Shown here one piece after another: positions 8,245 through 58,686 of a DNA stretch of 64,000 nucleotides. Each line of letters starts with the position of its first letter. Position 1 is the first letter of the stretch. This stretch comes from Dehalococcoidia bacterium. GTDB taxonomy: Bacteria > Chloroflexota > Dehalococcoidia > SHYB01. The stretch lies in NCBI GenBank assembly GCA_965207995.1, contig OZ242299.1:592064-656063 (forward strand), read 5' to 3'. The notes below the pieces were generated by a model, which was not told where the DNA came from, did not search any database, and saw only the letters and a program-made list of their open reading frames with translations. The position numbers and the translations under genes were made by a program.

Positions 8245-11200
8245 TCATTGGTGTGGGGCGGCCCCGGTTGCCGATACGCCGCCGGCATACGTCAACGCGA
8301 ACACCATATCGGAGAGTTCCCGGCGGAACGAGTCGTTGTCGCTGAACTGCTTGTACAGTTCAGCGTGGTCTGCGAGATAGTCGGTGATGGCCCGTTCCAA
8401 GGCCCGGTCGTGCTCGATCCGGGCATTCTGCCGGTCGGAGTTGGCCATAGCGTTCCGGTAGGCCCTGTCCTCTGAAACTTTGGTGGGAAGCTCCTCGGCC
8501 AGCACCTTGTCGATCTTGTCCTGGTCCTTCCACTCGATGTTGCCGAACCGGTCGTTGAACTCCCTTATGATGCTGGAAAGGCGGTCCATCTCCAGCTCCG
8601 GCTTCTGACCGCCGCCCTCGGTTGGGACCGGCCCGATCTCGGCGTCCTCGTCGGCCAACTGGATGGCCTGTACCGCCTGCTTCTCCACCCGGTAGCTGTC
8701 CATGTCTATGGCCTCCAGGATCCCCTTGGACAGGTCGTCCTCCTCTGGGGCGGGCAGCTTGGGAACGAGGAACGTCAGGAAGATGGACAGCCTCTCCCAC
8801 TCGGCATTGGTATAGGGCAGGATGGATGCCAGGAACCCGTAGGTCCGCAGGAAGGACTTCGCCTTGCCCTTGAAGTCCACCTGCCCGTCCTCGTCCAGTT
8901 CCCGGTAGACTGCAACGCAGGCATCGAGAATGGGGTCGAGGCGGTCACGGCTCTCCTTCGCCAAGAACCGCTTCACCAACTCGTCCACCTGAGCCGGGCC
9001 GTAGACCTGGTAACCGTCCAGGGACGCCTTCAGGTCGTGGAGCCGGTCGGGGTCGGTCTCCTCCGAGAGGATGGTCGTGCGGTAGTAGTCGGCGAACGCG
9101 CGCTGCATGGTGTCGGCGTCGTTGGCGAAGTCCAGCACGAAGGCGTTGTCCTTCTTCTGATGCGCCCGGTTGAGCCGTGAGAGGGTCTGCACGGCCCTCA
9201 CGCCCGACAAGGGCTTGTCCACGTACATGGTGTGTAGGAGCGGTTCGTCGTAGCCGGTCTGGAACTTGTCGGCGCACACTAGGAACCTGTAAGGCTCCTC
9301 CTGAATTCTCTCGGCGATGAGATTCGATGAGAAACCGTTGAGCGACGCCTCTGTGACCTTCCCGCCGTTGTACTCGGGCTCACCGGAGAATGCGGCGATG
9401 GCCTGATATGGACTCTTGCGCTCCGCAAGATAGTCACGGATGGCGAAGAAGTAGGTGATGGCCCGCCGGATGCTGCTGGTCACCACCATCGCCCGCGCTT
9501 GTCCCCCTATCTTCTGCAATCCCGCCACCTGCTCGTGGAAGTGGTCCACCATGATCTCCGCCTTGAGGCGGATGGCGTGGTCGTGGTCCTCCACGTAGCG
9601 GCGCAGTTTCTTCCCCGCTCGCTTGGTGTCGAACTCCGGGTCGCCCTCCACCGTCTTCACCAGCCGATAGTAGCTGTTCACCGGCGTGTAGTTCGCCAGC
9701 ACGTCGATGATGAACCGCTCCTCTATGGCCTGCTTCATGGTGTAGGAGTGGAAGGGGAAGTGCCTAGTCTTGTCGCCCTCCGGGACGGGCGCGCCGAATA
9801 TCTCCAGGGTCTTGTTCTTGGGCGTCGCGGTGAAGGCGAAGTAGCTGGCGTTGGCCAGCATCTTCTTGCTCTCCATGATGCGGTTGATCTTGTCCTCGGT
9901 GGTCTCGTCCTCCTCCTCGATACCGGATTCCCCAAGCGCCGTGGACATCGCGGCGGACGTGCGACCGCCCTGGCTGGAGTGCGCCTCGTCGATGATGATG
10001 GCAAAGCTGCGTCCCCGGTGCTCGTTGCCGATGGCGTCCAGGATGAAGGGGAACTTCTGCACCGTGGTAATGGCGATGCGTTTGCCCTGCTGCAAGAAGG
10101 CGCTAAGCTGGGCTGAGGTCTCGGCATGACCGACGACGGAGCCGACCTGGGCGAACTGCTTGATGGTGTCCCGTATCTGCCTGTCCAGCACCCTGCGGTC
10201 GGTGACGACCACCACGGTGTCGAAGATGTGTGCGTCGTCCCGCTCCAGTCCTATCAACTGATGGGCCAGCCATGCGATGGAGTTTGACTTGCCGCTGCCC
10301 GCCGAGTGCTGAATCAGGTACTTGGCTCCGACTCCCGTGGCGGATGCATCCGAAAGCAGACTCCGCACCACCTCCAGCTGGTGGTAGCGGGGCCACATCT
10401 GCTCACGCTTTTTTCGGCCCGTCCTATCGTCCCTGCTCTCGACGATCTGGGCGTAGTTCTCGATGATGTTGACGAGGCTGTCCCGGGTGAGCACCTGCTT
10501 CCACAGGTAGTCGGTCTTGAGGCCGTTCGGGTTGGGCGGGTTGCCCGCACCGTCGTTCCACCCCTTGTTGAAGGGCAGGAACCAGGACGCCTTCCCGTCG
10601 AGCTTGGTGCAGAACCGCACCTCGTGGTCGTCCACGGCGAAGTGGGCCAGGCAGCGTCCAAGCTCGAAGAGCCGCTCCCTGGGGTTGCGGTCCCGCTTGT
10701 ACTGTTCCACGGCGTCGTCTACCGTCTGCTTGGTCAAGCTGTTCTTCAGCTCGAACGTGGCGACGGGCAGACCGTTGACGAACAAGCACAGGTCAAGGGC
10801 TAACTGCGTGTTGTCGTTGCTGTAGCGCAGTTGCCGGGTCACGCTGAAGCGGTTCTGCTCGTACAGGATAGCGGCTCTGTCGTTCCCCGGCGACGGCGTG
10901 CCGTACATCAGGTCGATCAGATACGGACCGTGCTTGATTCCCTTGCGCAGCACATCGACGGTGCCTCGCTTCGTGACCTCTCCTTGCAATCTGGCCAGGA
11001 ACCTGCGCCGTGTGGGGTTCTCATCATCCAAGCCGAGCGATTCGGCAACGACCGGCTGGGTGTCTCGTAGAAAAGCGGAGAGTTGGGTTAGGTCTACGCA
11101 GTACTCGCGGTTGTAGTCCTGAGGGTCACCGCATATCCAGCCCGTGCCGTAGCCGGAAGGCCGTTCGGCTTCCACGCATCCCTGTGACGGGTCGCAGTCA

Positions 11201-11262
11201 GCGCCCGTCATCGCCTCGCAGATGAGGTGTTCAAGGCCCTTCTCGCTTGTGTCGGTGGTCAC
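8245..11262 (-). CDS. hsdR: Type I restriction enzyme R subunit (endonuclease/helicase)
   Basis: 1005 aa. HsdR N-terminal nuclease region, DEAD/DEAH helicase motifs ('SAGSGKS', 'IIDEAHSSQ') and helicase C domain; sits in an operon with hsdM/hsdS. Confidence 0.9.
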   Translation of the reverse strand: MTTDTSEKGLEHLICEAMTGADCDPSQGCVEAERPSGYGTGWICGDPQDYNREYCVDLTQLSAFLRDTQPVVAESLGLDDENPTRRRFLARLQGEVTKRGTVDVLRKGIKHGPYLIDLMYGTPSPGNDRAAILYEQNRFSVTRQLRYSNDNTQLALDLCLFVNGLPVATFELKNSLTKQTVDDAVEQYKRDRNPRERLFELGRCLAHFAVDDHEVRFCTKLDGKASWFLPFNKGWNDGAGNPPNPNGLKTDYLWKQVLTRDSLVNIIENYAQIVESRDDRTGRKKREQMWPRYHQLEVVRSLLSDASATGVGAKYLIQHSAGSGKSNSIAWLAHQLIGLERDDAHIFDTVVVVTDRRVLDRQIRDTIKQFAQVGSVVGHAETSAQLSAFLQQGKRIAITTVQKFPFILDAIGNEHRGRSFAIIIDEAHSSQGGRTSAAMSTALGESGIEEEDETTEDKINRIMESKKMLANASYFAFTATPKNKTLEIFGAPVPEGDKTRHFPFHSYTMKQAIEERFIIDVLANYTPVNSYYRLVKTVEGDPEFDTKRAGKKLRRYVEDHDHAIRLKAEIMVDHFHEQVAGLQKIGGQARAMVVTSSIRRAITYFFAIRDYLAERKSPYQAIAAFSGEPEYNGGKVTEASLNGFSSNLIAERIQEEPYRFLVCADKFQTGYDEPLLHTMYVDKPLSGVRAVQTLSRLNRAHQKKDNAFVLDFANDADTMQRAFADYYRTTILSEETDPDRLHDLKASLDGYQVYGPAQVDELVKRFLAKESRDRLDPILDACVAVYRELDEDGQVDFKGKAKSFLRTYGFLASILPYTNAEWERLSIFLTFLVPKLPAPEEDDLSKGILEAIDMDSYRVEKQAVQAIQLADEDAEIGPVPTEGGGQKPELEMDRLSSIIREFNDRFGNIEWKDQDKIDKVLAEELPTKVSEDRAYRNAMANSDRQNARIEHDRALERAITDYLADHAELYKQFSDNDSFRRELSDMVFALTYAGGVSATGAAPHQ

Positions 11263-11263
11263 G

Positions 11264-11599
11264 CTATCCCTCGTCTCGCATCGGAATGGGGACTTCCCAC
11301 ACTTCCCCTGGATCTATGCCGTCCAGGGCTGCGCGGATGCGCTCCGTTTGCCGCGATATGCGATTCCAATCGGCGTTCATCAGCACCACTACGGCAATTC
11401 GTCTGTTCGACAAGTTCTGCTGGTATCGGAGGTTCTGGTCGGTGGTGACCAACACCTCGAAACCGGCTTCTTCGGCCCTGTCCAGCAAGTCGCCGTTCGA
11501 CAGGACGTCCCAACCGCGCTCCCTGGCCTCTTCGACTTCATGGTTGAAGAGACGAGAGCGCAGCTGTCTGGGCGTGCCGTTATCGAACAGGATGCGCAT
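11264..11599 (-). CDS. DUF5615 (PIN-like) putative toxin, copy 1
   Basis: Starts 'MRILFDNG...' and contains 'VLVTTDQNLRYQQNL', the family signature. Pairs with the upstream DUF433 gene with a 20-nt overlap. Its stop is 1 nt from the hsdR ATG. Confidence 0.75.
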   Translation of the reverse strand: MRILFDNGTPRQLRSRLFNHEVEEARERGWDVLSNGDLLDRAEEAGFEVLVTTDQNLRYQQNLSNRRIAVVVLMNADWNRISRQTERIRAALDGIDPGEVWEVPIPMRDEG

Positions 11600-11828
11600 C
11601 GGCAACCACAAGATCGGCGCGGAGTTCCTGTGCCGCGAACTCCAGGACCTCACTCACCTCAGATTCTGATACTCCTCCAAACCAGTCGATGAAGTCGTAT
11701 ACGGTCGCGCCTCCGGCCAGATTGTCGAAGAGGACGTACAGGGGCAGACGTGTGTTCTTGAACACCCACGCCCCGCTCACCTTGCCTGGGATTTGTTCAA
11801 CCGCCGGGCATTTGCTCCAGTCGATCAT
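11580..11828 (-). CDS. DUF433 putative antitoxin, copy 1
   Basis: 'DWSKCPAVEQIPGKVSGAWVFKNTRLPL' signature. The conserved GAGGTGA RBS is shared with copy 2. Confidence 0.75.
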   Translation of the reverse strand: MIDWSKCPAVEQIPGKVSGAWVFKNTRLPLYVLFDNLAGGATVYDFIDWFGGVSESEVSEVLEFAAQELRADLVVADAHPVR

Positions 11829-11916
11829 GCTGTCACCTCGCTTTCGATTTCCCTGATCCTTCGCCGACTACATACCTTCTGCCATTCGTCCACCTTCCTC
11901 TATTGGCAAGCCTGAC

Positions 11917-12234
11917 TCAGTTGGGGACTTCCCTAAGTTCACCAGGCTGTAGCCCCTCAATGGCGGCGCGAATGTCCTCCACCCACGGCTGAACTATCGG
12001 CCATCTGTTGGAGCGCAGGAGGACGAAGGCTATCTGCCTGCGGCTGAGGACCTGCTGATGCCGCATATTCTGGTCTGCCGTTATCAGCAATTCATAGCCT
12101 GCCGTTTCCGCCTGGTCCAGAAGCTCGCCGTTCGATACCTCCGCCCATCCCCGTTCATCGGCCGTATGTACGTCGTGTTCGGCAAGGTGGTCGCGGAGCG
12201 GCTCGGGTACGTTGTGGTCAAACAGGATTCTCAA
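11917..12234 (-). CDS. DUF5615 (PIN-like) putative toxin, copy 2
   Basis: 'MRILFDHNVP...LLITADQNMRHQQVL'; paralog of 11264..11599. Confidence 0.75.
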   Translation of the reverse strand: MRILFDHNVPEPLRDHLAEHDVHTADERGWAEVSNGELLDQAETAGYELLITADQNMRHQQVLSRRQIAFVLLRSNRWPIVQPWVEDIRAAIEGLQPGELREVPN

Positions 12235-12457
12235 TCTTCACCTTGGCGTCGAGGCTCTGCACCTCGTGTTCCAGAGCAGCCCTAATTTGCCATTCCTTCA
12301 CGCCGGGAAACCAGTCGAGGAAGTCCTTGACGGTGGCTCCCTCTGCGAGATTCCCGAACAGGGCGGATACCGGTATCCTGGTGCCGGTGAACACCCAGGC
12401 TCCGCTCAGTCTGCCGGGTACGCTCTCCACCGCCGGGCATTTGCTCCAGTCCGTCAT
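12218..12457 (-). CDS. DUF433 putative antitoxin, copy 2
   Basis: 'MTDWSKCPAVESVPGRLSGAWVFTGTRIPV'. Its start codon overlaps the hsdS stop (ATGA). Confidence 0.75.
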   Translation of the reverse strand: MTDWSKCPAVESVPGRLSGAWVFTGTRIPVSALFGNLAEGATVKDFLDWFPGVKEWQIRAALEHEVQSLDAKVKIENPV

Positions 12458-13857
12458 CTTGTCACCTCGCTTTCGATTCCAAGCTCTTGCGTATGTTCTT
12501 CGGTGTCGTAGATGCCTTCAACCAAGGCGTTTTGTTGTGGGTCGCCTTCTCCTATTGGAACGTGGTCCTCGGCTTCATCGGGTAGTTGCGCCGCAGCGTC
12601 GCGCACGTCCAGCTTGCCCGTCACCACGTCGGCAATGAGGCGGGTGCGGTACTCCTCCACCAGCTCGACCTGGTGGCGGGCGCGGATGATGGCGCTGTCG
12701 ATGGCGTTGGTAGCCTTGTCGAGATGTTCGACGATGGCTCGCTGCTCGTAGATGGGAGGGACCAATAGCATCGAGGCCCCCAATTCTTCAGCGTTCAAAT
12801 GGGGCTGGGCAGCTCTGGAGCTTGCGGTGATCAATTGGTCGTTTCGCAAGTACGTAGAAAGCAATGCCTGTGCCATGAACTGAGCCATGCAGCCAGTTGC
12901 GGTTACGACTAGATCGTAGCCAGCCACTGCTCCGTCGTAGGCTGTTGGGATGATGGCTGAGTCGGCGGTATAAGCTCCACTCCGAACAACGATGATCTCA
13001 TGCCGCCTTAGCAGAGCGTCGCGGGTCGCTGGTACATCGCTGGGGTCAACACGGATTAGGCCCCTATCAACGATTCGCCCCCGCTCCACGTTGGTTGCGC
13101 GGATGAGTGGTGGTCCATCTACAGATTCGCGCGGAGGCTGTCCTAACCCATACCGGATGCGCCCTAGTGTCTTCAGCCGCCGCACCTCCCAATGCTCCGG
13201 CACGTCGCCGAGCCACTCGACGCCGGAGGGCTTGAGGCGGACGTTGGGGTAGAGGCCGCGGGTCACGGCTTGATTAACGACGGCCTGCCGCTCCTCTTCC
13301 AAGAGAGCAATGAGCTTCCGCTTGGCACTGGTGTACCGCCGTATGCGCCGGTCCACGTAGTCCAGGTAGCGCACGATAGCGTGCTGCTCAGGCAGGGGCG
13401 GGAGAGGGAGGATTCTTTCGTACGCATCGTTGCGGTTTAGTCCCGGCACGGCGGAGTCGTGTGAGAATTGATCCAAGCCCAGTAGCGGCAAGGCGTACGA
13501 CAGCCATCCCAGGTCAGCATTGGTATGGCGGTCATCAATGAAGAACGTAGTATCAATGGCAAATGCATCCCTACCGAGGTAGGAGACCTTACCGAAAGAG
13601 CCCTTGCGTCCGATGATGATGCAGGGGGAAAGTGTGTTGGCAGTATTGTGGACGCCAACCTGACCATTAGAGCCGTAGACAGGTATGTCTCCCTCTGCAC
13701 GGTTTTCTGCGCTCAGGCTGTCTCCATAAGCCAATTGACAGATCTGCTTCAGTCGCCGCACCTCCCAATGCTCCGGCACCTCTTCCAGCCATTCGACGCC
13801 GGAGGGCTTGTAGGCAGGGTAGCTCTTGAGCCGTCCTATGGAATGACTTGCGTTCAT
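12454..13857 (-). CDS. hsdS: Type I restriction-modification specificity subunit
   Basis: Two target-recognition domains, each preceded by the conserved 'KPSGVEWL(E/G)(E/D)VPEHWEVRRLK' repeat, plus conserved central and C-terminal coiled regions. Confidence 0.85.
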   Translation of the reverse strand: MNASHSIGRLKSYPAYKPSGVEWLEEVPEHWEVRRLKQICQLAYGDSLSAENRAEGDIPVYGSNGQVGVHNTANTLSPCIIIGRKGSFGKVSYLGRDAFAIDTTFFIDDRHTNADLGWLSYALPLLGLDQFSHDSAVPGLNRNDAYERILPLPPLPEQHAIVRYLDYVDRRIRRYTSAKRKLIALLEEERQAVVNQAVTRGLYPNVRLKPSGVEWLGDVPEHWEVRRLKTLGRIRYGLGQPPRESVDGPPLIRATNVERGRIVDRGLIRVDPSDVPATRDALLRRHEIIVVRSGAYTADSAIIPTAYDGAVAGYDLVVTATGCMAQFMAQALLSTYLRNDQLITASSRAAQPHLNAEELGASMLLVPPIYEQRAIVEHLDKATNAIDSAIIRARHQVELVEEYRTRLIADVVTGKLDVRDAAAQLPDEAEDHVPIGEGDPQQNALVEGIYDTEEHTQELGIESEVTR

Positions 13858-14096
13858 AGTTCCAACTTACCGAGGAGTTCGTCCACGCTCATTCCGTGAT
13901 GCCGCGCCACACTCTTCAAGATACTCAACAGCGTCTTCACCTTGATCGGGTTGTGTTGTGGGATCACCTCGTGGTGTTCACCGTTGACCTGTGTCGTGAC
14001 CCGCACGTGAGAGCCGCGCTGCCGGACGGCTTCGTAGCCCAGCCGTCGAAGCGACGACTGTAGGGAAGCGCCGCTAACGTCGCGGGGCAATCTCAC
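13854..14096 (-). CDS. hicA: HicA-family toxin (GTG start; GTGA overlap with the hicB stop; ATGA overlap with the hsdS start)
   Basis: '...QRGSHVRVTTQVNGEHHEVIPQHNPIKVKTLLSILK' is a YcfA/HicA-like fold. The track ORF (13854..14171) is N-terminally over-extended. Confidence 0.65.
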   Translation of the reverse strand: MRLPRDVSGASLQSSLRRLGYEAVRQRGSHVRVTTQVNGEHHEVIPQHNPIKVKTLLSILKSVARHHGMSVDELLGKLEL

Positions 14097-14311
14097 GCGA
14101 CCAATACCTCCTCGCGTACGAAGTGCAGCCGGATCAGCTTGGGCCGTCGCATGGTCTCGTCGAAGTAACAATCGACGGCCTCCTTGACGTTGTCGCGCAA
14201 CTCCTCCAGGGAATCTCCCTCCGTGTGGATGCCGTACCCCAGCGCGCTGGCGGTGTATCCGCCGTCCACCTCATCTTCGCTGACCTCAAAGATGATCTCG
14301 GTCTCAGACAT
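14093..14311 (-). CDS. hicB: HicB-family antitoxin (UPF0150 fold, no DNA-binding extension)
   Basis: 72 aa 'IFEVSEDEVDGGYTASALGYGIHTEGDSLEELRDNVKEAVDCYF'; it sits upstream of and overlaps hicA. Confidence 0.65.
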   Translation of the reverse strand: MSETEIIFEVSEDEVDGGYTASALGYGIHTEGDSLEELRDNVKEAVDCYFDETMRRPKLIRLHFVREEVLVA

Positions 14312-14352
14312 TGGCTCCTCCTATCGGAATGGTTTTCTCTTGGGGCGGAACG

Positions 14353-16329
14353 CTATCTCCCATCCGACGACCCACCCGCGACCAGTATCTCCGCCAACAG
14401 CCCATCCGTCTCGTGCTCCAGGGCCAGAATGTCGGCTCGTATCTCCTCCAGGGGTCGGAGCGGCTGGGGCTTGTAGAAGTGACGGGTGAAGCTGATCTCG
14501 TAGCCGACCTTCACGCTGCCGGGCTTGTACCAGGCATCGGGAGAGTAAGGTAGCACCTCGCGGCGGAGGAATGCCTCGATGCTGCCCTCTTCCAACAGAG
14601 ACACCTGCTCTGTGTCGCGCAGATCGGTGTCCGGCTCGTACTCCACCACGGCGGGCTTACCTTTGATGGTTGCCGCAAACAGCCCGCACAGCGGGTCTGC
14701 CTCCACGTCACTCTTGTGGACCCTCTTTATTACCGGCGGCGCGGTCTCAGACCGCTTGCCGTCTTCTTTGAGCGCCCTGATCTCTTTCGCCGAGTAGACC
14801 TGTTCCGGGTCGATACCCTCTATTCTCAGGGACCGCTCTACTGTGACCTTCCAGTAGCCGAAAGCCTCGTTGGGGAATATCTTCGACTGCTCAGTCTCCT
14901 CAAAGGCAAGGAAGGCATCGCAAATTCGGCGAATGTCCTCGTCGGAAAGCTCACAGTTCTTGTTGCCAAGGTTCTTGCGAAGAGGACGGAACCATTGGGT
15001 CGCGTCGATGAGCTGCATCTTGCCCCGGCGGTGGGCCGCCTTGCGGTTGCTCAGCACCCAGATGTAAGTGGCGATGCCGGTGTTGTAGAACATGTTTAGG
15101 GGCAGGGCGACGATGGCCTCCAGCCAGTCGTTCTCGATGATCCAACGTCGGATGTTGCTCTCGCCCTGCCCAGCGTCACCGGTGAAGAGGGAACTACCGT
15201 TGTGCACCTCGGCGATGCGGCTGCCCATGTCCGTGTTCCGCTTCATCTTGCTGAGCATGTTGGCCAGGAACATCATCTGGCCGTCGCTGGAACGGGTGAT
15301 GAGGGAGTAGTCAGCATCGCCGCCATGCTCGACGAGGAAGCGGCGGTCCATGATGCCGGACCGGCCGCCCATGCGCTCCAGGTCGGTCTTCCAACTCTTG
15401 CCGTAGGGCGGATTGGAGAGCATGAAGTCGAACTCTTCGGCAGGGAAGGTATCGGCGGCCAGAGTGGAGCCGAACCCTATGTTGTCGGCCTCGACACCCT
15501 CTCCCTTCAGGATCAGATCGGCCTTACTGATGGCATAGGTTTCCGGGTTAACTTCCTGTCCGTAGAGGTGAACGGAAACCTCCTTGCCCTTCTCACCAGC
15601 CAGTTCCGTCAGCGTCTCTTCGGCAACCGTCAGCATCCCGCCGGTGCCGCACGCGCCGTCGTATACCAGGTAGGTGCCGGACCGGACCTGCTCGGCCACG
15701 GGCAGGAAGATGAGGCGGGCCATAAGCTGCACCACGTCACGCGGCGTGAAGTGCTCTCCCGCCTCCTCGTTGTTCTCCTCGTTGAATCGCCGGATCAGCT
15801 CCTCGAAAACCGTGCCCATTCCGTGGTTGTCCAAGCCGTCCAGCCGCACCGACCCGTCGCCGTTGAGGACCGGCTGCGGGCTAAGGTTGATGGAGCTGTC
15901 CAGGAACTTCTCCAACAGGAAGCCGAGGGCGTCGGCGTCCACCAGCGTCGGAATCTGGTTGCGGAATTTGAACTTGTCCAGCACTTCCTGGATGTTGGGA
16001 GAGAAGCCGTCGAGGTACGCCTCGAAGTCGGTTCGCAGTTGCTGTTGCCGACCGCGTGATGCAAGGTCCCGGAGGCGGAAGGGCGAGGTGTTGTAGAAGG
16101 CTTGGCCGGAGGCCTGGCGAAGGGCGGCGTCCTGGTTGGTGATGCCCGCGCCGTCCAACTGCTCTTTCATGCGAAGCACCGCATCCTTGGTCGGCTCCAG
16201 CACGGCGTCGAGCCGCCGTATCACCGTCATGGGCAGGATGACGTCGCGGTACTTGCCGCGAACGTAGACGTCCCGCAGCACGTCGTCGGCGATGCCCCAT
16301 ATGAAGCCGCTGATGTTGAGTGCGCTCAC
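14353..16329 (-). CDS. hsdM: Type I restriction-modification N6-adenine DNA methyltransferase subunit
   Basis: HsdM N-terminal domain, AdoMet motif 'YDGACGTGGML', catalytic 'NPPYG'; 658 aa with a C-terminal extension. Confidence 0.9.
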   Translation of the reverse strand: MSALNISGFIWGIADDVLRDVYVRGKYRDVILPMTVIRRLDAVLEPTKDAVLRMKEQLDGAGITNQDAALRQASGQAFYNTSPFRLRDLASRGRQQQLRTDFEAYLDGFSPNIQEVLDKFKFRNQIPTLVDADALGFLLEKFLDSSINLSPQPVLNGDGSVRLDGLDNHGMGTVFEELIRRFNEENNEEAGEHFTPRDVVQLMARLIFLPVAEQVRSGTYLVYDGACGTGGMLTVAEETLTELAGEKGKEVSVHLYGQEVNPETYAISKADLILKGEGVEADNIGFGSTLAADTFPAEEFDFMLSNPPYGKSWKTDLERMGGRSGIMDRRFLVEHGGDADYSLITRSSDGQMMFLANMLSKMKRNTDMGSRIAEVHNGSSLFTGDAGQGESNIRRWIIENDWLEAIVALPLNMFYNTGIATYIWVLSNRKAAHRRGKMQLIDATQWFRPLRKNLGNKNCELSDEDIRRICDAFLAFEETEQSKIFPNEAFGYWKVTVERSLRIEGIDPEQVYSAKEIRALKEDGKRSETAPPVIKRVHKSDVEADPLCGLFAATIKGKPAVVEYEPDTDLRDTEQVSLLEEGSIEAFLRREVLPYSPDAWYKPGSVKVGYEISFTRHFYKPQPLRPLEEIRADILALEHETDGLLAEILVAGGSSDGR

Positions 16330-16679
16330 TGGCTCGTCATGCTCCTATAGGCTGCCTTGACCATCTGGTCGAGGGCGACGGCGGCTTGTTCGTTGAGACG
16401 AGGGTCGGAGTGTAGGCAGGAAGATATCACCGCCAGCGGCTCCGGCTCCTCCCCGGCAGACGGGTTCCTGAGAAATCGGTTCACGTCCAGCCCCGACCAG
16501 GTCGCCAGCGCCGCCAGGCCGTTCACGTCGGGGTGTCTGCCTTGAGCCATACGAGTCAAGGTGGAGGCGCTTATGCCGCACTCCTCCGCCACCTGCTTCC
16601 AGGTGCATCGACGGGCCTGCCTCTCCGTGTCCAACGCGGCGAAGAAGGCGTCGCCGTCGAACCTAGCTGTCCTAGCCAT
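16326..16679 (-). CDS. XRE-family HTH regulator overlapping the hsdM start (controller-like)
   Basis: 'TWKQVAEECGISASTLTRMAQGRH' helix-turn-helix; ATGA overlap with hsdM. Confidence 0.7.
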   Translation of the reverse strand: MARTARFDGDAFFAALDTERQARRCTWKQVAEECGISASTLTRMAQGRHPDVNGLAALATWSGLDVNRFLRNPSAGEEPEPLAVISSCLHSDPRLNEQAAVALDQMVKAAYRSMTSQ

Positions 16680-16822
16680 GTTTCTCTCCTCGGCGGGTAC
16701 ACGCCACAGATGGCTGTCACCTGAGGCTGGTGTGCATTGCTCATTTGATTATCGCAACTGTATAATTCGTTTGCAATAGGAGGGGATTCATCCACTCCAA
16801 GAGCTATGCCGCTCAGCGGTTA

Positions 16823-16878
16823 TGGCTCTAGCTCCTAGGACTCTGGAAGAATGACTTACGCAGACTACTTCAAAGGTG
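16823..16878 (+). repeat. Upstream direct-repeat copy of the cas3 translation-start region (about 85% identical to 17307..17365)
   Basis: Alignment: tatggctctagctcctaggactctggaagaatgacttacgcagactacttcaaagg versus aatggctctagcgtataggacttggaagagatgacttacgcaggcttcttcaagaagg. Confidence 0.7.
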
Positions 16879-17306
16879 GTATCCACCTCTTTACCGTGCT
16901 CAACGGATCGTCAACGCCCTAAACCCGTGGAAATAAATGGGGCCGCGACTTAGTTGGTCGCGGATACAGAGAGTTCTCCTGCTGCTGATCGCATAACCTG
17001 AGTGCTTCAATGGAGCCTCCTGGTGAGGAGGGTTGCTGAGGGAGACAGGAGATGGTATGCTTATCTAAGGTTCACTCACGTTATTAGTAATATGTTTCTG
17101 ACTGAGGGGTAGTGTACATGGAGAAACGAGAGAACGCAAGAAGAGTTTGCTTTGAGGCTTTCCACTCAAGACGCGATGAAGATCTTGAGGGCGGTGCATC
17201 ACTTACCATCTGTCGCAGTTCGTCGAAGTTCACCATCGAGTCCGAAGAGAGGGTAGAGCAATTCGGACCAAGATGCCCGCGCCGAGTGCCAAGAGCTCTG
17301 CCGGTC

Positions 17307-17365
17307 TCCGATAATGGCTCTAGCGTATAGGACTTGGAAGAGATGACTTACGCAGGCTTCTTCAA
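17307..17365 (+). repeat. Downstream copy of the direct repeat; contains the genuine cas3 RBS and start codon
   Basis: See the copy at 16823..16878. A 428-bp AT-rich segment lies between the two copies. Confidence 0.7.
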
Positions 17366-19745
17366 GAAGGCGACCGGATTCGATCCCTACCCGTACCAGG
17401 CTAAGCTCGTCGAAAGCGATGGGAAGTTCTCGCTCCTGAGAGTACCGACCGGGTCGGGTAAGACCGAAGCTGTGATCCTGGGGTGGCTCTATCTCCGTTG
17501 CGAGTGCGCGAACGCCGCCCCGCCGCGCAGGTTGGTCTACTGCCTGCCGATGCGGACACTGGTGGACCAGACCGTCCGCCGGGTTGAGAAGTGGCTTGTG
17601 AATCTGCGTATGACGGACGATGTTGGGGTTGTCACGCTCATGGGCGGAGAGCCGCGCAAGCAGTGGTACTTGGAGCCTGAGAAGCCGTTCATTGTCGTGG
17701 GAACTCAGGACATGCTGCTGTCCCGCGCCCTGAACCGTGGGTACGGCATGGGCTACAACATGTGGCCTGTGGAGTACGGACTGCTGAACAACGACTGCCT
17801 GTGGGTTATGGACGAGATCCAGCTCATGGCAAACGGCCTGCCCACGTCAACACAACTGGCGGGACTGCGGGACAAGCTGGATACCTTCGGACCGGCCCGG
17901 AGCATCTGGATGTCGGCAACGGCCCGCCCCGACTGGTTGGACACCATTGACCATCGCCGCCCTGGGGCGGAGCAGGTAATGGAGCTTGGCCCCGCCGACC
18001 TTGCGGACGCTCGCTTAGGTAATCGTCACAGCGCCCAAAAGATAGTGACTAGAGTCAAGAGGCAGAAGGAGGTAGCCGCACTCATCGCGGAGAAGCACGT
18101 GTTGGGCACATTGACGCTGGCGATAGTCAACACGGTCGAGCGCGCACAGAAACTCTACGCCGAGCTGGTCAAACCTCGGAACAAGTTACTCCCGGACGTC
18201 GAGAAAGTCTTAGTGCATTCGCGTTTCCGAGAGGATGACCGGCAGAGGAAGCAAGGCCGAATCGATGCGTCTCTCAGTTGTGCAGGCCGGGTCGTAGTCG
18301 CGACACAGGCGGTCGAGGCGGGGGTGGATATCTCGGCGCGTACGCTGATAACTGAGATTGCGCCTTGGGCGTCGATGGTGCAACGGTTTGGCCGGTGCAA
18401 CCGCGAGGGTAAGTACGAGTATGGGGACGTCCTGTGGTTGGATGTGGAAAAGGACACCGCTCCATATGACTCGGATGACGTTGAGCACGCCCGCGGAATC
18501 ATGGAATCCCTGGAAGGTAAGTCTGTTGGGCCTGCTGCGCTTGAAGATATGGGCAACGAGATGAAGGACCCTGACCACGCCATCGTCATTCGTAGGCGAG
18601 ACGTGGTGGGGCTTTTCGACACGACGCCGGACTTGTCGGGGAGCTATTTGGACGTGTCGCAATACATCCGTGGGACGGAAGAGACGGGCGTAACGATATT
18701 CTGGCGCGATGTTCCAGAGGACTATCCAGACGAGGGAGAGCCGAGGCCACGCCATAACGAGACGGTGAGCGTGCCCCTTGGCGACTCAAGGGGCGGCCCA
18801 AAGGGAATCAAGGACTACTTGGATAGTAACCGCAAGGCGTGGATATGGGACTTCTTGGACAGTCAGTGGCGGGAGATTCGGTCTCGCGAGGTTTATCCCG
18901 GCATGACGCTGATGCTGGATGCGAACCAAGGCGGATATGACCCTGATTCGGGCTGGGACGTTTCCGGGAAAGATCGGGTGGAACCTGTGTCGGCTCAAGG
19001 AGAGAACTGGGAACCAGTGCCGGAAGGTCAGGGTTCGGAGCCGACGAACACGTCACAGCGAAAGTGGGTGAGCCTGTCAGACCACTCCCGTCATGTGGAA
19101 GCGGAGGCACTCGTCATCCTTCACGCGATGTCTGAGCAATTCGAGCCCGGCGTCCTCGAAGCAGTGGCGCTAGCGGCACTGTATCACGATGCTGGTAAGG
19201 CACACCCGGCATTCCAGGAAATGTTGCATAAAGATGGCGAATGCCCTCCTGGAGGGGTTTTACTAGCCAAGAGTCGAGGTAACGGAAGGATGGATCGCCG
19301 TCATTTCCGGCATGAGTTGGGCAGTGCATTGGCGTTGTTGAAGCACGCCCACATATCGACCGACGGCATGCGCGACCTCGCCGCGTACTTGGCAGCAACA
19401 CATCATGGAAAGGTCAGGCTCGGCATAAGGTCTCTGCCGGGGGCGCGGACAGGAAACAAGGATAGCAGCCCGGACCCGGACAACCTGTTGGGGTATCCGA
19501 TGTCAGCGCCTGAGACGCTGCCGGCTGTGGATCTAGGCAAAGGGCTTCTCGTACCCAAGACGACTCTGGATGTGTCAGTAGCCCGGATGGGGATGGACGA
19601 GAACGAGAGGCGGTCATGGCTGGAGCGGAGCCTAACGCTATTGGAGCGCTACGGACCGTTCAGGCTTGCCTACTTGGAAGCGCTAGTACGTGCTGCCGAC
19701 ATGCGGGCTAGTGCGAAGGAGCAGGGGGAGGAGACCGCAGAATGA
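17334..19745 (+). CDS. cas3: Cas3 helicase with C-terminal HD nuclease domain (type I-G/I-U architecture)
   Basis: N-terminal DEAD-box helicase motifs ('VPTGSGKT', 'VMDEIQLM') and helicase C; C-terminal HD motifs ('HSRHVEAEA', 'LYHDAGKAH', 'THHGKVR'). Confidence 0.9.
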   Translation: MEEMTYAGFFKKATGFDPYPYQAKLVESDGKFSLLRVPTGSGKTEAVILGWLYLRCECANAAPPRRLVYCLPMRTLVDQTVRRVEKWLVNLRMTDDVGVVTLMGGEPRKQWYLEPEKPFIVVGTQDMLLSRALNRGYGMGYNMWPVEYGLLNNDCLWVMDEIQLMANGLPTSTQLAGLRDKLDTFGPARSIWMSATARPDWLDTIDHRRPGAEQVMELGPADLADARLGNRHSAQKIVTRVKRQKEVAALIAEKHVLGTLTLAIVNTVERAQKLYAELVKPRNKLLPDVEKVLVHSRFREDDRQRKQGRIDASLSCAGRVVVATQAVEAGVDISARTLITEIAPWASMVQRFGRCNREGKYEYGDVLWLDVEKDTAPYDSDDVEHARGIMESLEGKSVGPAALEDMGNEMKDPDHAIVIRRRDVVGLFDTTPDLSGSYLDVSQYIRGTEETGVTIFWRDVPEDYPDEGEPRPRHNETVSVPLGDSRGGPKGIKDYLDSNRKAWIWDFLDSQWREIRSREVYPGMTLMLDANQGGYDPDSGWDVSGKDRVEPVSAQGENWEPVPEGQGSEPTNTSQRKWVSLSDHSRHVEAEALVILHAMSEQFEPGVLEAVALAALYHDAGKAHPAFQEMLHKDGECPPGGVLLAKSRGNGRMDRRHFRHELGSALALLKHAHISTDGMRDLAAYLAATHHGKVRLGIRSLPGARTGNKDSSPDPDNLLGYPMSAPETLPAVDLGKGLLVPKTTLDVSVARMGMDENERRSWLERSLTLLERYGPFRLAYLEALVRAADMRASAKEQGEETAE

Positions 19746-21898
19746 GCCACGTCTTGGAGTTGCGGGGATGCACGCCGGAGCCTTTGATGTCGTATCTGAA
19801 AGCGCTCGGTATCTTCCGGCTGGTGGCGCAGCAGAGAGACAAGGGCGCCCGTGCTTGGTGGCGTAACGACAAGTTTATGCTAAGTTCGTCGTTGGACAGA
19901 GGTGCTCTGGTGGACTTCTTCCTAGAGGAGTATAGACCAACGCCCATCATGTCCCCGTGGAACCGCGGCAGCGGATTCTACCCGAAGGATAACTCCAAGG
20001 CCATGGAGGTCATTTTGGAGTTGGAGTCACCGAGATTCCAGCGTTGGCATGAGGTGGTTTCCATAGCCAAGAGGATAGTGTCTAAGGGTGATGGGCTTAA
20101 GCAGCAAGGACTCAAAGAGTGGGTGCTTGCCCAGTGCAGGGCCGAGTTCCCCGACGACGCACTGGACTGGCTTGATGCGACGTACGTCCTTACCGCAGAT
20201 GGAGCGAAGTTCCCACCCCTTCTAGGTACAGGCGGCAACGACGGACGGCTGGAATTCAGCAACAACTTCATGCAGAACGTGGTCTACGCATTGAACATAG
20301 ATGACCAACGCAACGGGGCTTCGGTGGCTCAGAGTCGTCTCATTGCTGCCTTGTTCAACGAGGGTTCTCCGCAACTCATGAAGAAGCGTTCGACGGGGTT
20401 CTACAATCCTGGAAGCGTGGGGGGTGCCAACGCATCCGTGGGGTTCAACGATGATGCACTGACCAACCCCTGGGACTACGTGTTCATGTTCGAAGGTGTC
20501 CTTCTGTTCGCCGGCGCGGCAGCTCGGAGACTGTCATCGCAAACATCGTCCAAAGCGATATTCCCATTCACCGTAGACAGTTCCGCTGCCGGGTATGGAA
20601 CGTCCGCAGACTCCGAATATGGGGACTCTTCTAGGGCCGAGTTCTGGGCTCCCCTATGGGACCAACCCACCAAAATCCAGGAATTGGATCACCTGGTTTC
20701 GGAGGGGCGCGCCCAGATGGGGAGGCGCCAGGGAGCAAATGGAACGGACTTTGCCAGAGCAGTCATCGGCCTGGGGACGGAGCGCGGGGTTCGGCAGTTT
20801 CAGCGATACGGATTCATGGTACGGAACGGATTGGCGTATCTGGCCGCTCCATTGGGTCGATTCTACACCCCGGACCACGAGGCATCGGAGCGTGCCAACC
20901 TCGCCGACGTACTGTTCGATCTGGATGTGTGGCTGAACAGTCTTCGGCGCAACGCGTCCGGTAATAGAGGGCCGGCCGGCCTTGGCACAGTCCTGAGGCA
21001 GGTCGAGGATGCAATCATAGAGTTTTGCCAACGAGGAAGACCGCACGAGCTTCAGAATGTGTTGATCGCAGTGGGACGCGCCGAGCGGTGGGTGGCGGTC
21101 TCGGGGCTGCGGGAAAACGTCAGCCCACTCAGCAATCTCTCGCCTAAGTGGTTTGATCAAGCCAATGATGACTCCGTCGAATTCAGGGCGGCCAAGGCTA
21201 TGTCATCTATCCTTCAGGAGCCGACTTCAGGAATAGGCCCAATCAGGTGGAACTTGGAGCCCGTTAGAGTGCCTCAGCGACGCTTAGAGTGGGCTACGGA
21301 CAGCACATCGTTCGTATGGACCGGGGGTGATCCGTTGGCCAACATGCTTGCCGTGCTGGAACGCCGTTGCATTGAAGGAAAGATGCACGGTATTCAGAGT
21401 CGCCACCCGCCACTTAACGCAGCGTACTCGGCCAATTTGAGTGACATCGTGTCATTCCTGAACGGTAATGTAGATGATCAGCGCATAGCTGACCTCTCAT
21501 TGCCGCTGTCATTCGTTCACTACTGGCAGCGCCCAGCGCCGAACAATTTCCAGCAGGAACCGCCGGTCGATTTGCCGGTTGCGTACGCGGCGATGAAGCT
21601 GACGTTGCTGACCGGAGAATTCAAGTGCCTGGAGTTCGGTCCTGGTGTGGACATCGCCATGGAGCCATCCATGCTGGCGATGCTGCGCGCGGGTAGAGTG
21701 AGCAGCGCTTATCGGGTGGCATGTAGGCGTCTGAGCGCGTCGGGACTACGACCTTTGTCAGAAGCCCCTGGCATAAGTGATGGATCAAAGCAGGGGCGAC
21801 GGATAGCGGCGGCGTTGTTGTTTCCACTGGACGAGGGTGCATACTGTGCCCTTGCTCATCGTGCACTGCGCAAGCCGAACGGACGCGAAACCGGATAA
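19742..21898 (+). CDS. csx17: Csx17 (Cas8u2) large subunit of the type I-G effector complex
   Basis: 718 aa; N-terminal 'GCTPEPLMSYLKALGIFRLVAQQ' is typical of Csx17. ATGA overlap with cas3, and it sits in a I-G operon context. Confidence 0.8.
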   Translation: MSHVLELRGCTPEPLMSYLKALGIFRLVAQQRDKGARAWWRNDKFMLSSSLDRGALVDFFLEEYRPTPIMSPWNRGSGFYPKDNSKAMEVILELESPRFQRWHEVVSIAKRIVSKGDGLKQQGLKEWVLAQCRAEFPDDALDWLDATYVLTADGAKFPPLLGTGGNDGRLEFSNNFMQNVVYALNIDDQRNGASVAQSRLIAALFNEGSPQLMKKRSTGFYNPGSVGGANASVGFNDDALTNPWDYVFMFEGVLLFAGAAARRLSSQTSSKAIFPFTVDSSAAGYGTSADSEYGDSSRAEFWAPLWDQPTKIQELDHLVSEGRAQMGRRQGANGTDFARAVIGLGTERGVRQFQRYGFMVRNGLAYLAAPLGRFYTPDHEASERANLADVLFDLDVWLNSLRRNASGNRGPAGLGTVLRQVEDAIIEFCQRGRPHELQNVLIAVGRAERWVAVSGLRENVSPLSNLSPKWFDQANDDSVEFRAAKAMSSILQEPTSGIGPIRWNLEPVRVPQRRLEWATDSTSFVWTGGDPLANMLAVLERRCIEGKMHGIQSRHPPLNAAYSANLSDIVSFLNGNVDDQRIADLSLPLSFVHYWQRPAPNNFQQEPPVDLPVAYAAMKLTLLTGEFKCLEFGPGVDIAMEPSMLAMLRAGRVSSAYRVACRRLSASGLRPLSEAPGISDGSKQGRRIAAALLFPLDEGAYCALAHRALRKPNGRETG

Positions 21899-21925
21899 AG
21901 TGGCCGAACAATAATCAGGAGGTTC

Positions 21926-22930
21926 TTGAACATGACGATTGATTGGAAGCAAATGGACGGTGTTCCACGCCTCCTAATGGAGGCTGAGCTGAGACCAGTA
22001 CAGGGTACGCGGTTCCAGCCCACGGGTTTTCCTGATCTTGGTGCTGCTACGTATGAAGCCGTCGGCAAGGTCGATATGGTATTGGTCGAGTCGGCGCAGT
22101 CCATGGCCAATCGAATGGAAGCCGTTTGCTGGGACGAAGAGAACGAGTCTCCGCCCTCCGTACTCAATGGAATGCCTTACGTCTCAGTGGCCCTATGGGA
22201 CAGTGGCAGCTCCACCAATTCGATCCTGGAAGCTCACAGGCTCAACTCCCCCTACATCATGCGTGATGAGGATTTCGCGGCCAAAATCCGGGATGAGGCA
22301 GGGCTACCAGGTCGAAAAGAGAAGGAAGAGGTCGGAGAGTTTAATCGTGCGGCCCTTGCCAAGGCGGTGTTCAAGTATGACCCAGGCTCCGTGCTGCATG
22401 GGGTCTTCTTGGAAAAGCTGCTCGGACTCGCCCGGCTCCAGCGCTGCCTGTCCGGGTTCGTAGAGGCCTGCAACTCCAATGTTGCGGACAGCGGCGGCGT
22501 CAAGAACGACCGGATCGCTCCCTCGCCAGGGTCTTTGAGGCAGATAGGTTTGGAGGTTAGCGCTGCGGAAGGTTACGGCAACGTTCCATTCCACCGTACA
22601 GAATACACCGCTGAGCTTATCACCGCCTACTTCAACCTGGATTTGGCGCAGATTCGGGCCTATGGGTTGGGCGAGAGTGCAGAGCGGTTCCTGGTCACAT
22701 TAGCGTTGTGGAAGGTGCGTAAGTTCTTGGAAACTGGGTTGCGACTGCGGACGGCTTGCGACCTGGATGTTTGCGGCGGCCTGAATGTCACGCGGCCTCA
22801 AGGGTTCGACGTACCGCTAACATCAGATCTGACGGCCAGTCTCCCAAGGCTCATAGAGGCGTGCGCCTCCGAAGGGTTGTTCGCAGACCCCCCCGTAACG
22901 CAGCTTACGTTCGAGAAGAAGGGCAAGTAG
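21926..22930 (+). CDS. csb1: Csb1 (Cas7 group RAMP) of type I-G
   Basis: 334 aa, glycine-rich RAMP-like; position after csx17. Confidence 0.8.
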   Translation: MNMTIDWKQMDGVPRLLMEAELRPVQGTRFQPTGFPDLGAATYEAVGKVDMVLVESAQSMANRMEAVCWDEENESPPSVLNGMPYVSVALWDSGSSTNSILEAHRLNSPYIMRDEDFAAKIRDEAGLPGRKEKEEVGEFNRAALAKAVFKYDPGSVLHGVFLEKLLGLARLQRCLSGFVEACNSNVADSGGVKNDRIAPSPGSLRQIGLEVSAAEGYGNVPFHRTEYTAELITAYFNLDLAQIRAYGLGESAERFLVTLALWKVRKFLETGLRLRTACDLDVCGGLNVTRPQGFDVPLTSDLTASLPRLIEACASEGLFADPPVTQLTFEKKGK

Positions 22931-22936
22931 TCTGCC

Positions 22937-24412: not shown

Positions 24413-24416
24413 AAGT

Positions 24417-26135: not shown

Positions 26136-26137
26136 AC

Positions 26138-26428
26138 ATGCGCAATCGATTCTTGGTGTGCTACGATGTGTCCGATCCCAAACGCCTGAGTCGGACGTAC
26201 AAGAAGATGACCGGGTTCGGCGAGCCAGCACAATACTCTGTATTCATTTGTGACCTGTCGCCGAAGGAAAGGGTATTGCTGGAAGTCGCACTCACGGAGA
26301 TTCTGAACCTGAAGGAGGATCGAGTGTTGATAGTGGACATGGGACCTTCCGAGGGCCGAGGAAGTGAGAGTGTTACGATCTTGGGGAATGCTCGTGAAAT
26401 GCCCCGGCGGTCAGTGGTGATTGTGTGA
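26138..26428 (+). CDS. cas2: Cas2
   Basis: 'MRNRFLVCYDVSDPKRLSRTYKKMTGFGEPAQYSVFICDL' is a classic Cas2 N-terminus. The start is 3 nt after the cas4/cas1 stop. The track ORF 25883..26428 is an N-terminal over-extension. Confidence 0.85.
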   Translation: MRNRFLVCYDVSDPKRLSRTYKKMTGFGEPAQYSVFICDLSPKERVLLEVALTEILNLKEDRVLIVDMGPSEGRGSESVTILGNAREMPRRSVVIV

Positions 26429-58611: not shown

Positions 58612-58686
58612 CTACGCCCCGAAACCTGCATCTCCAGAATAGGGGCGGCCTCGAAGCAGGGTCAAGCCGCTGAGCCGGCCGCGCGG

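Follow-up and report, generated by a model that had tools for sequence, protein, structure and literature searches.

Here we describe a type I restriction-modification (R-M) operon of a Dehalococcoidia bacterium in which three toxin-antitoxin (TA) pairs are lodged between the subunit genes. The operon lies in a stretch of 64,000 nucleotides (nt) of contig OZ242299.1 (GenBank assembly GCA_965207995.1, forward-strand positions 592,064 to 656,063), which is called the window throughout; coordinates count from its first letter. Read on the minus strand from 16679 to 8245, ten co-oriented genes follow one another in the order XRE regulator, hsdM, hicB-hicA, hsdS, DUF433-DUF5615, DUF433-DUF5615, and hsdR. 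A first-pass annotation of the sequence had proposed this gene order and strand, and both are borne out by direct reading and by Pfam assignments. The presence of TA pairs inside a type I R-M operon, co-oriented with the hsd genes and chained to hsdS and hsdR by overlapping stop and start codons, is confirmed, with small corrections that are given below. Related loci, which stem from the survey described further on, are cited by L numbers.

Genes and Junctions of the Operon

The features of the operon, from the first gene to the last, are listed here with their lengths in amino acids (aa) and with expect values after the family names. The two DUF433/DUF5615 pairs are called module 1 and module 2, and their genes carry the same numbers.

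16326-16679, minus strand: XRE-type helix-turn-helix (HTH) regulator, first gene, 117 aa (Pfam HTH_31, 1.3e-6; HTH_3)
14353-16329, minus strand: hsdM, methyltransferase subunit, 658 aa (Pfam N6_Mtase, 3.7e-54; HsdM_N, 9.9e-22; PADLOC MTase_I, 2.3e-241)
14093-14311, minus strand: short HicB-like antitoxin, single domain, 72 aa (assigned from a structure model and the neighborhood of relatives)
13854-14096, minus strand: HicA toxin, 80 aa (Pfam HicA_toxin, 4.1e-9, 36.9 bits versus a cutoff of 27)
12454-13857, minus strand: hsdS, specificity subunit with two target-recognition domains, 467 aa (Pfam Methylase_S in two stretches; PADLOC Specificity_I, 1.2e-99, residues 10-424)
12460-12478, minus strand: module leader, copy 1, 19 nt, aatcgaaagcgaggtgaca, inside the 3' end of hsdS; carries the GAGGTGA Shine-Dalgarno sequence for DUF433_1
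12218-12457, minus strand: DUF433 (COG2442) antitoxin of module 1, 79 aa (Pfam DUF433, 5e-14); 86% identical to the L004 copy
11917-12234, minus strand: DUF5615 (COG4634/Mut7-C-group PIN-like) toxin of module 1, 105 aa (DUF5615, 6.6e-7, 29.6 bits versus a cutoff of 23.8; PIN_10, 4e-4)
11831-11849, minus strand: module leader, copy 2, the identical 19 nt, in the gap between the modules
11580-11828, minus strand: DUF433 antitoxin of module 2, 82 aa (Pfam DUF433, 3.6e-9)
11264-11599, minus strand: DUF5615 PIN-like toxin of module 2, 111 aa (DUF5615, 21.4 bits, just under the cutoff of 23.8)
8245-11262, minus strand: hsdR, restriction/translocase subunit, 1005 aa (HSDR_N, 1.9e-20; SWI2_SNF2, 1.7e-26; ResIII; T1R_D3-like; TIGR00348, 2.9e-61)

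PADLOC and NCBIfam concur on the three Hsd subunits. At the sequence level, the operon has what a type I R-M system would be expected to encode, namely an HsdM, an HsdS with two target-recognition domains, and an HsdR with predicted nuclease and superfamily 2 (SF2) translocase parts.

The genes are tightly packed, with overlaps of 4-20 nt, gaps of 41 and 88 nt, and a spacing of 1 nt before hsdR. The regulator and hsdM overlap by 4 nt at GTGA, and not at ATGA as first annotated, with hsdM starting on GTG. The other couplings had been read correctly: GTGA at hicB/hicA (hicA starts with GTG), ATGA at hicA/hsdS, ATGA at hsdS/DUF433_1, and a single nucleotide between the stop codon of DUF5615_2 and the GTG of hsdR. 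Between hsdM and hicB, the spacer of 41 nt contains an AGGAGG ribosome-binding site. Within the modules, antitoxin and toxin genes overlap by 17 nt in module 1 (toxin start TTG) and by 20 nt in module 2 (toxin ATG at 11599), and 88 nt separate the two modules. Neither of the two intergenic gaps holds a terminator-like site, and an Rfam scan detected no RNA family in the operon.

Two of the genes read through the ribosome-binding site of the next one. The HsdS tail ending in GIESEVTR (12454-12478) is encoded by the DUF433 leader with its Shine-Dalgarno sequence (GAGGTGA), and the C-terminal tail PIPMRDEG of DUF5615_2 (11264-11290) encodes the Shine-Dalgarno sequence of hsdR (GAGGGA). Such gene ends are found in the window as well as in L001, L003, L005, and L058, whereas toxins without a PIPMRDEG-type tail (module 1 of the window, L004, L065, and L068) lie 16-18 nt from hsdR or from a spacer. 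With the HsdS tail running through the module leader and the toxin tail supplying the hsdR Shine-Dalgarno sequence, the chain of translational coupling is thus kept around the insert.

The HicB-HicA Pair

The toxin of the pair between hsdM and hsdS is recognized by its HicA domain, and its RGSH motif aligns with the RGSH of the solved HicA 9svk, albeit in a weak alignment (E 0.84). In HicA toxins, the histidine of the Gly-Ser-His motif is the catalytic residue.

Its upstream partner is less easily recognized. The HicB-like open reading frame (ORF) has no match in Pfam, NCBIfam, or PADLOC and none among PDB sequences, and a profile built from nine of its homologs reached TTHA1756 only at E 0.63. 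Its AlphaFold (AF2) model (pLDDT 82) shows three strands, a helix, and a strand, for which Foldseek returned 1wv8 (TTHA1013), 2yzt, and 3k6q as top matches, with probabilities of 0.99-1.0 and TM scores of 0.54-0.61 at weak E-values (0.025-0.14). For two relatives, which share 82% and 90% identity with the window protein, a called HicA gene comes next in 12 of the 16 places listed, nine times with a 4-nt overlap and three times after a 14-nt gap. One relative bears the JGI label "RNase H-like HicB family." The C-terminal DNA-binding domain of HicB (ribbon-helix-helix, RHH, or HTH) does not appear in this protein of 72 aa, whose model has a single domain and which has no HTH or RHH match in Pfam. 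Model and neighborhood together support a short HicB that would lack the usual DNA-binding domain and resemble stand-alone proteins of the TTHA1013 type; presumably, it cannot autoregulate. The pair thus shares with known HicAB systems the HicA domain with its RGSH motif, an upstream partner with a modeled partial RNase H fold of the HicB type, and the 4-nt overlap, and it differs from them in the short antitoxin without the C-terminal RHH or HTH domain of canonical HicB.

The family of this short HicB is large and strikingly conserved: of 3384 matches, the best 120 show 79% identity or more and come from Chloroflexi, Gemmatimonadota, and Gammaproteobacteria. In NCBI, several records carry the name "2-oxoisovalerate dehydrogenase," apparently a propagated misnomer.

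The DUF433/DUF5615 Modules

Both DUF433 proteins of the window score above the Pfam cutoff, and in both pairs the antitoxin gene lies directly upstream of the toxin gene. By sequence, the pairs correspond to the TA pair of COG2442 with a PIN-like partner (COG4634, Mut7-C group). PDB sequence searches with DUF433 and DUF5615 gave chance matches only, and a DUF5615 model derived from the two window copies alone reached a pLDDT of only 57, too low for a fold search. Three acidic residues (D6, E43, and D54) are invariant in 15 members of the family and are present in both DUF5615 toxins of the window.

The modules had been described as about 60% identical, and the measured values are slightly lower: 56% between the two DUF433 proteins and 54% between the two toxins (E 9e-39). 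DUF433_2 is closer to copies elsewhere, being 70-74% identical to those in L003, L005, L014, and the first module of L001. The ribosome-binding region that the two modules were said to share is real and takes the form of the identical 19-nt leader before both DUF433 starts. The leader also precedes DUF433 in both modules of L001 and in L004, L005, L007, L014, L008, and L012. We considered whether it might be a general feature of DUF433 modules and rejected this, as the long motif occurs in 0 of 67 free-standing modules. Leader-like sequence is present in just two free-standing modules, L088 and L129, whose DUF433 proteins are also, among the free-standing modules compared, the closest to those of the window (77% and 70% identical).

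Related Operons and Their Two Cargo Slots

A scan for HsdM, with one genome per species, yielded 80 related loci with HsdM 69-94% identical, spanning Chloroflexota, Latescibacterota, Nitrospirota, Acidobacteriota, Proteobacteria, and archaea. The window proteins were mapped onto these loci and the junctions measured; hsdM, hsdS, and hsdR could all be mapped in 65 of them. Cargo at the hsdM-hsdS (M-S) junction, the hsdS-hsdR (S-R) junction, or both is present in 63 of the 65, and in 48 each of the two junctions carries additional sequence exceeding 150 nt. The median insert measures 1.6 kb at M-S and 1.0 kb at S-R. The two remaining loci (L026 and L038) are bare M-S-R operons, joined as hsdS-ATGA-hsdR.

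The cargo is diverse. The slots of the 80 loci hold 297 ORFs (238 of them co-oriented), which fall into 187 sequence clusters; 154 of these clusters are singletons, and many have no Pfam family among those listed. At M-S, the Pfam counts are GmrSD_N 14, ThsB_TIR 9, HicA 6, HerA/DUF87 5, SIR2_2 3, YhcG/DUF1016 3, and Fic 3. At S-R, they are DUF433 14, DUF5615 8, Macro 7, DarT 6, Schlafen AlbA_2 5, Peptidase_M78 with HTH 5, AAA_21 4, DUF4411 3, BrnT 3, and PIN 3. Some of the inserts, at 1.5-6 kb, are unrelated to the cargo of the window, and the same hsd genes are kept around them. Because recurrent and diverse defense or TA cargo is found at both junctions of related loci, we regard these junctions as general cargo slots for defense and TA genes of this R-M family, with the three TA modules of the window as one filling among many.

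The particular filling of the window recurs as well. DUF433, with or without DUF5615, occupies the S-R junction in at least 13 loci, and hicBA or remnants of hicB are found at M-S in ten. The hsdS-ATGA-DUF433 junction is retained in 11 of 13 loci, and the toxin stop codon followed after 1 nt by the hsdR start is retained in L001, L003, L005, and L058. The closest relative, L001, is a Dehalococcoidia metagenome-assembled genome with HsdM 94% identical and with the same ten genes; synteny extends to the cas operon and the tetratricopeptide repeat (TPR) gene downstream. The arrangement goes far beyond what chance would produce: all ten genes recur in the same layout in L001, and many loci share the junction architecture. 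A comparative check of this kind had been proposed with the first-pass annotation, which also named the outcome that would speak against it, namely the modules as independent loci in relatives and a layout peculiar to one strain, together with inactive toxins. What we find points the other way: the layout is shared with L001, DUF433 modules sit at the same junction in the loci counted above, and, as far as sequence can tell, both toxin types keep residues of the catalytic type.

Turnover of Cargo and Origin of the Two Modules

Within this shared framework, the cargo and the specificity subunit vary. The HsdS of the window is only 43% identical to that of L001, versus 94% for HsdM. L001, L002, and L004 sit at the same chromosomal site as the window, between the same neighboring genes, and differ from it in cargo and hsdS. 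L002 has one module with a frameshifted toxin, and L004 has a broken hicB, no hicA, a gene of 416 aa instead, and one module. Taken with antitoxin-only remnants and with the bare operons, these differences indicate a free turnover of cargo that leaves the operon unlocked, and the suggestion that the TA pairs act as an addiction preventing the loss of individual R-M genes is not supported.

Decayed copies could be located in several loci. A frameshifted hicB lies at 12001-12200 of L004, and hicB without hicA occurs in L053 (11970-12167) and L072 (12658-12870). Frameshifts or stop codons interrupt DUF5615 in L002 (14160-14505), L006 (14898-15208), and L016 (19761-20075). Some of these may be long-read assembly errors; the hsdR of L002 also appears split.

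The modules of the window had been called tandemly duplicated, a view that we had to abandon. In neighbor-joining (NJ) trees, the toxin of module 2 groups with those of the first L001 module, L014, L005, and L003 (clade A), and the toxin of module 1 groups with that of L004, with the second L001 module and L060 as sister (clade B). The order of the two module types is reversed in L001, and each type also occurs singly in other relatives. Duplication in situ was rejected on these grounds, as the window toxins fall in different clades, each nearer to single modules of other genomes. The sequences identify the two modules as diverged paralogs that were stacked, and not as a recent local copy; the shared leader, together with the conserved DUF433 5' end, probably provided the sites for the recombination that stacked them.

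Free-Standing Modules and the Toxin Tree

We further considered 80 metagenomic relatives of DUF5615 (48-60% identical); this count and those that follow apply to the matches listed. DUF433 lies directly upstream in 71 of the 71 relatives with enough upstream sequence. Of the relatives whose sequence extends 600 nt or more downstream (49), none has an hsdR there that tblastn could detect, and of those extending at least 1.2 kb upstream (42), none was found to have an hsdS. Close relatives of hicBA elsewhere adjoin sox or serA/nuo genes. Because no hsdR or hsdS was found beside the DUF5615 relatives and the hicBA relatives stand beside such housekeeping genes, both module types are, outside the R-M family, ordinary free-standing TA pairs.

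In an NJ tree of the toxins, all 15 R-M-embedded DUF5615 proteins share a single clade, and 71 of 73 free-standing toxins fall outside it. The tree is without bootstrap and covers about 105 residues, and its embedded sample was drawn from genomes and its free-standing sample from metagenomes. The two free-standing toxins inside the embedded clade are L081, which lies between carboxylase genes and is nearly identical to the L065 copy, and L088, which lies near an insertion sequence (IS) element. Overlooked R-M contexts were considered for both and rejected in view of these neighbors. As a lead, the clustering of the embedded toxins could mean that they were inherited together with the operon, or that they have in some way adapted to it.

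Regulator and Promoter

The first gene has orthologs 81-97% identical at the same position in L001, L002, L004, and L014. We asked whether its product could be RptR, a four-helix protein of 79 aa with a reported crystal structure (PMC12255303), and rejected this: phmmer against all PDB chains returned no RptR match at E<=1, and the Pfam matches are to HTH_31 and HTH_3 instead. The same search gave no sequence match of the XRE protein to any solved structure. By sequence, the regulator would resemble RptR in position only and may be regarded as its analog. One candidate promoter precedes the gene:

16748-16776, minus strand: candidate promoter of the sigma-70-like type (TTGCAA-17-GATAAT, TG upstream), ~70 nt ahead of the start codon of the XRE gene

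Between 7900 and 17400, the minus strand has no second sigma-70-like site, and sites of this kind are no more numerous than in shuffled sequence.

The Surrounding Defense Island

The operon is part of a defense island that combines the R-M genes with a CRISPR-Cas system. The island (window 8000-30000, ~22 kb) has a G+C content of 56-62%, versus mostly 64-75% in the rest of the window, which is consistent with horizontal acquisition. A cas operon of the I-G/U-like type (17334-26428, plus strand) stands back to back with the R-M operon and encodes a Cas3 with a C-terminal HD domain, a protein of the GSU0053 family, and a Cas4-Cas1 fusion. It is followed by a CRISPR array at 26621-~30122 with 47 repeats (CCTTCCATCGCTGAAAGGCGATGGCCCCATTGAAGC), in which the long ORFs called at 26958-27431 and 27930-29138 are spurious.

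Some features of the intergenic region between the XRE gene and cas3 deserve mention. A direct repeat of 46 nt, with copies 80% identical at 16797-16842 and 17289-17334, brackets ~490 nt of this region; the first copy adjoins the candidate R-M promoter, and the second runs up to the start of cas3. In L001, the repeat is present only once and the intergenic region is much shorter. These features point to an insertion or duplication within a control region that is shared, and the repeat is possibly a common operator. At ~17003-17016 (minus strand), 13 of 14 nt match the 3' end of the CRISPR repeat (GGCTCCATTGAAGC); the local alignment score is 23, whereas shuffled sequences reach 19 at the 95th percentile and 24 at most, so the match is marginal and may be due to chance. 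Outside the island, a tRNA gene is located at 58547-58621.

Comparison with Known Systems

TA or defense genes nested in type I R-M operons are already documented, as PrrC, DarTG2, PIN-like toxins, and "guilt-by-embedding" attest, so the window adds no new category. In EcoKI, hsdM and hsdS are normally coupled directly (PMC3510504). The closest counterpart is DarTG2 of enteropathogenic Escherichia coli (EPEC), which lies between hsdS and hsdR under a repressor encoded by the first gene and confers phage defense; the S-R site has been termed a recombination hotspot for defense systems (PMC12255303). The window shares with this operon a type II TA between hsdS and hsdR, co-oriented genes, and a small DNA-binding regulator in first position, and DarT/Macro pairs fill the same S-R slot in six to seven loci related to the window. 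On the other hand, the cargo of the window consists of HicBA and two DUF433/DUF5615 modules, with the M-S junction also filled; its regulator is an XRE HTH protein of 117 aa without detectable similarity to RptR; its operon has no M48 peptidase gene; and the hosts are Chloroflexota-like and Gammaproteobacteria, respectively.

PrrC, an anticodon nuclease, is embedded in the EcoprrI type IC locus (PMC12707154). There, too, a type I R-M operon encodes a latent toxin that cleaves RNA and provides a second line of abortive defense, a role that is predicted for the window toxins. PrrC is, however, a single ABC-ATPase-nuclease silenced by the R-M complex, whereas each toxin of the window comes with its own small antitoxin.

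Matelska et al. 2017 (PMC5499597, section 17) reported PIN-like toxins, DUF433-PIN_10 among them, whose transcription is coupled to that of type I R-M subunits, with the Belliella baltica operon (DUF433-PIN_10, HsdM, HsdS, and GmrSD) as an example; these arrangements are not conserved between close species (PMC5499597). The B. baltica operon likewise combines a DUF433 antitoxin and a PIN-like toxin of the Mut7-C group with hsd genes. In the window, however, the toxin is best matched by DUF5615 (COG4634-type) and only weakly by PIN_10, two modules are stacked, and a full hsdR is present. Moreover, in contrast to the arrangements of Matelska et al., the junction pattern (hsdS-ATGA-DUF433, then toxin stop, 1 nt, hsdR) recurs across many loci of the window's R-M family.

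According to the "guilt-by-embedding" study, type I R-M systems frequently contain embedded genes, which are co-oriented in 96.7% of cases and often defensive; embedding, which also occurs in BREX, DISARM, and Hma systems, served there as a systematic route to new genes (Payne et al. 2024, bioRxiv 10.1101/2024.01.29.577857). The window fits this picture with its nested, co-oriented TA genes, and GmrSD-like cargo is common there as it is in the M-S slot of the relatives; HicBA and DUF433/DUF5615, however, were not singled out by Payne et al. 2024.

As for the module itself, the COG2442-PIN TA pair was predicted by Makarova et al. 2009 (PMC2701414) and given its classification by Matelska et al. 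2017 (PMC5499597), and for VapBC10 (ssr2962/slr1767) of Synechocystis PCC 6803, a COG2442-PIN pair, toxicity, neutralization, and ClpXP-dependent activation have been shown (PMC3834315). VapBC10 has the same layout, with the DUF433 antitoxin gene directly upstream of and overlapping the gene of a PIN-type toxin. VapC10 is a canonical PIN protein of a free-standing pair with its own promoter, whereas the window toxin belongs to the reduced Mut7-C/COG4634 group and sits inside another operon. Three things are particular here: the cargo, which combines a short hicBA at M-S with a stack of two DUF433/DUF5615 modules at S-R; the conservation of the junction architecture within this R-M family; and the apparent clustering of embedded toxins.

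What the Toxin-Antitoxin Cargo May Do

On balance, we favor, with moderate confidence, the view that the TA pairs are a co-transcribed second line of defense of the abortive type, and at the same time island-stabilizing cargo, held in two recombination-prone slots of a mobile type I R-M operon. The operon would be horizontally mobile, and its M-S and S-R junctions would act as cargo slots, into which modules were captured and stacked by recombination. The M-S slot would contribute a short HicB with HicA as an RNase toxin, and the S-R slot two diverged VapBC-like pairs, each made up of a winged-helix DUF433 antitoxin and a DUF5615 PIN-like nuclease toxin. A single transcript, starting from a promoter ahead of the XRE gene, would cover all ten genes, and the XRE protein may fill the role that RptR or C proteins have in other R-M systems; translation of hsdS would be coupled to that of hicA, and translation of hsdR to that of the second DUF5615. 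The antitoxins would depend on transcription of the operon, and the short HicB would have no DNA-binding domain. Upon phage shut-off of host expression, or upon loss of the operon, the labile antitoxins would decay, and the freed HicA and PIN-like toxins would cleave RNA and arrest the cell, which would provide both an abortive second layer and stabilization of the island. The first-pass annotation had likewise suggested a coupled abortive-infection layer, and by analogy this would fit the precedents of PrrC and DarTG2 (PMC12707154, PMC12255303).

Several points weigh against this reading. The case for co-transcription draws on gene packing and on the promoter scan, whose match count does not exceed that of shuffles, and the sigma-70 consensus may not apply to a Chloroflexota-like host. 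The tblastn test of the free-standing modules sees only HsdR proteins that are detectably similar to that of the window. No PADLOC v2 model matches any of the six TA proteins, which therefore do not count among recognized defense candidates. Finally, the turnover of cargo, the broken toxins (L002, L006, L016), and the antitoxin-only remnants (L053, L072) would equally fit neutral or selfish hitch-hiking.

Indeed, the pairs could be purely selfish addiction elements that settle in permissive, highly expressed, recombination-prone junctions, from which they are hard to lose, and that add nothing to phage defense or R-M function except for incidental stabilization. We consider this rather unlikely. 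In its favor, both module types occur as generalists in housekeeping surroundings, their cargo slots are filled differently among syntenic relatives and contain decayed copies, and Makarova et al. 2009 (PMC2701414) found no conserved neighbor of COG2442 besides PIN, to which the silence of PADLOC may be added. Yet the slots are dominated by recognized defense genes (GmrSD, ThsB, DarTG, HerA/SIR2) instead of random cargo, the exact ATGA and 1-nt junctions are kept across loci whose HsdM is only 73% identical, the embedded toxins cluster in the tree, and embedded DarTG2 and PrrC are proven in defense (PMC12255303, PMC12707154). That same clustering leads to the opposite thought, that the toxins are guardians of the R-M system after the model of PrrC, restrained by or sensing the R-M complex and firing when phage anti-restriction inhibits it, with the DUF433/DUF5615 lineage at S-R adapted to the R-M family. 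Besides the single clade of embedded toxins, the PrrC precedent (PMC12707154) and the conserved junctions argue for this, as does a strict preference of slot, with DUF433 at S-R in 14 of the 16 Pfam-matched ORFs and HicB/HicA only at M-S. Every toxin has its own cognate antitoxin, however, so that an R-M partner is not needed; two free-standing modules nest in the embedded clade, one of them (L081) nearly identical to an embedded copy; and the clade, taken from an unbootstrapped tree with unlike samples, could merely reflect co-inheritance with the operon. We consider the guardian function improbable.

A broader version of this thought holds that DUF433/DUF5615 at S-R is a lineage specialized to the R-M family and functionally linked to it, either gating the synthesis of HsdR or firing, like PrrC, when restriction is blocked, with the stacking of two modules broadening the triggers or resisting phage antitoxin mimics. 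We give it a small chance, because of the conserved S-R junctions, the toxin tail that encodes the hsdR ribosome-binding site, and the near-monophyly of the embedded toxins. The small ORFs might, finally, be kept mainly because their translation determines how much HsdS and HsdR is made, or when, in relation to HsdM, for instance to delay restriction while the operon becomes established in a new host. The chaining of hsdS to hicA and of hsdR to DUF5615_2, the Shine-Dalgarno sequences encoded in the toxin and HsdS tails, and the direct coupling of hsdM and hsdS in EcoKI (PMC3510504) are in line with such a coupler. Against it, the bare operons L026 and L038 and the operons with different and far larger cargo keep the same hsd genes, which means that no particular small ORF is needed, and coupling is a common by-product of operon compaction; we deem it very improbable. 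Similarly, the idea that the layout ties TA expression to R-M subunit stoichiometry is a fair inference from the coupling, yet the same slots are filled by dozens of cargo genes without relation to one another, which makes stoichiometry an improbable target of selection.

Significance for the R-M Family

Whichever function the cargo of the window has, the R-M family to which it belongs offers a natural series of near-isogenic operons whose fixed junctions hold zero, one, two, or three TA modules. This series, in which the window, L001, L002, and L004 share one chromosomal site, is well suited to testing the abortive layer, the stabilization of the island, or effects on the ratio of the Hsd subunits. 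Moreover, with their diverse cargo of 187 clusters, 154 of them singletons, both junctions are a compact hunting ground for new defense genes.

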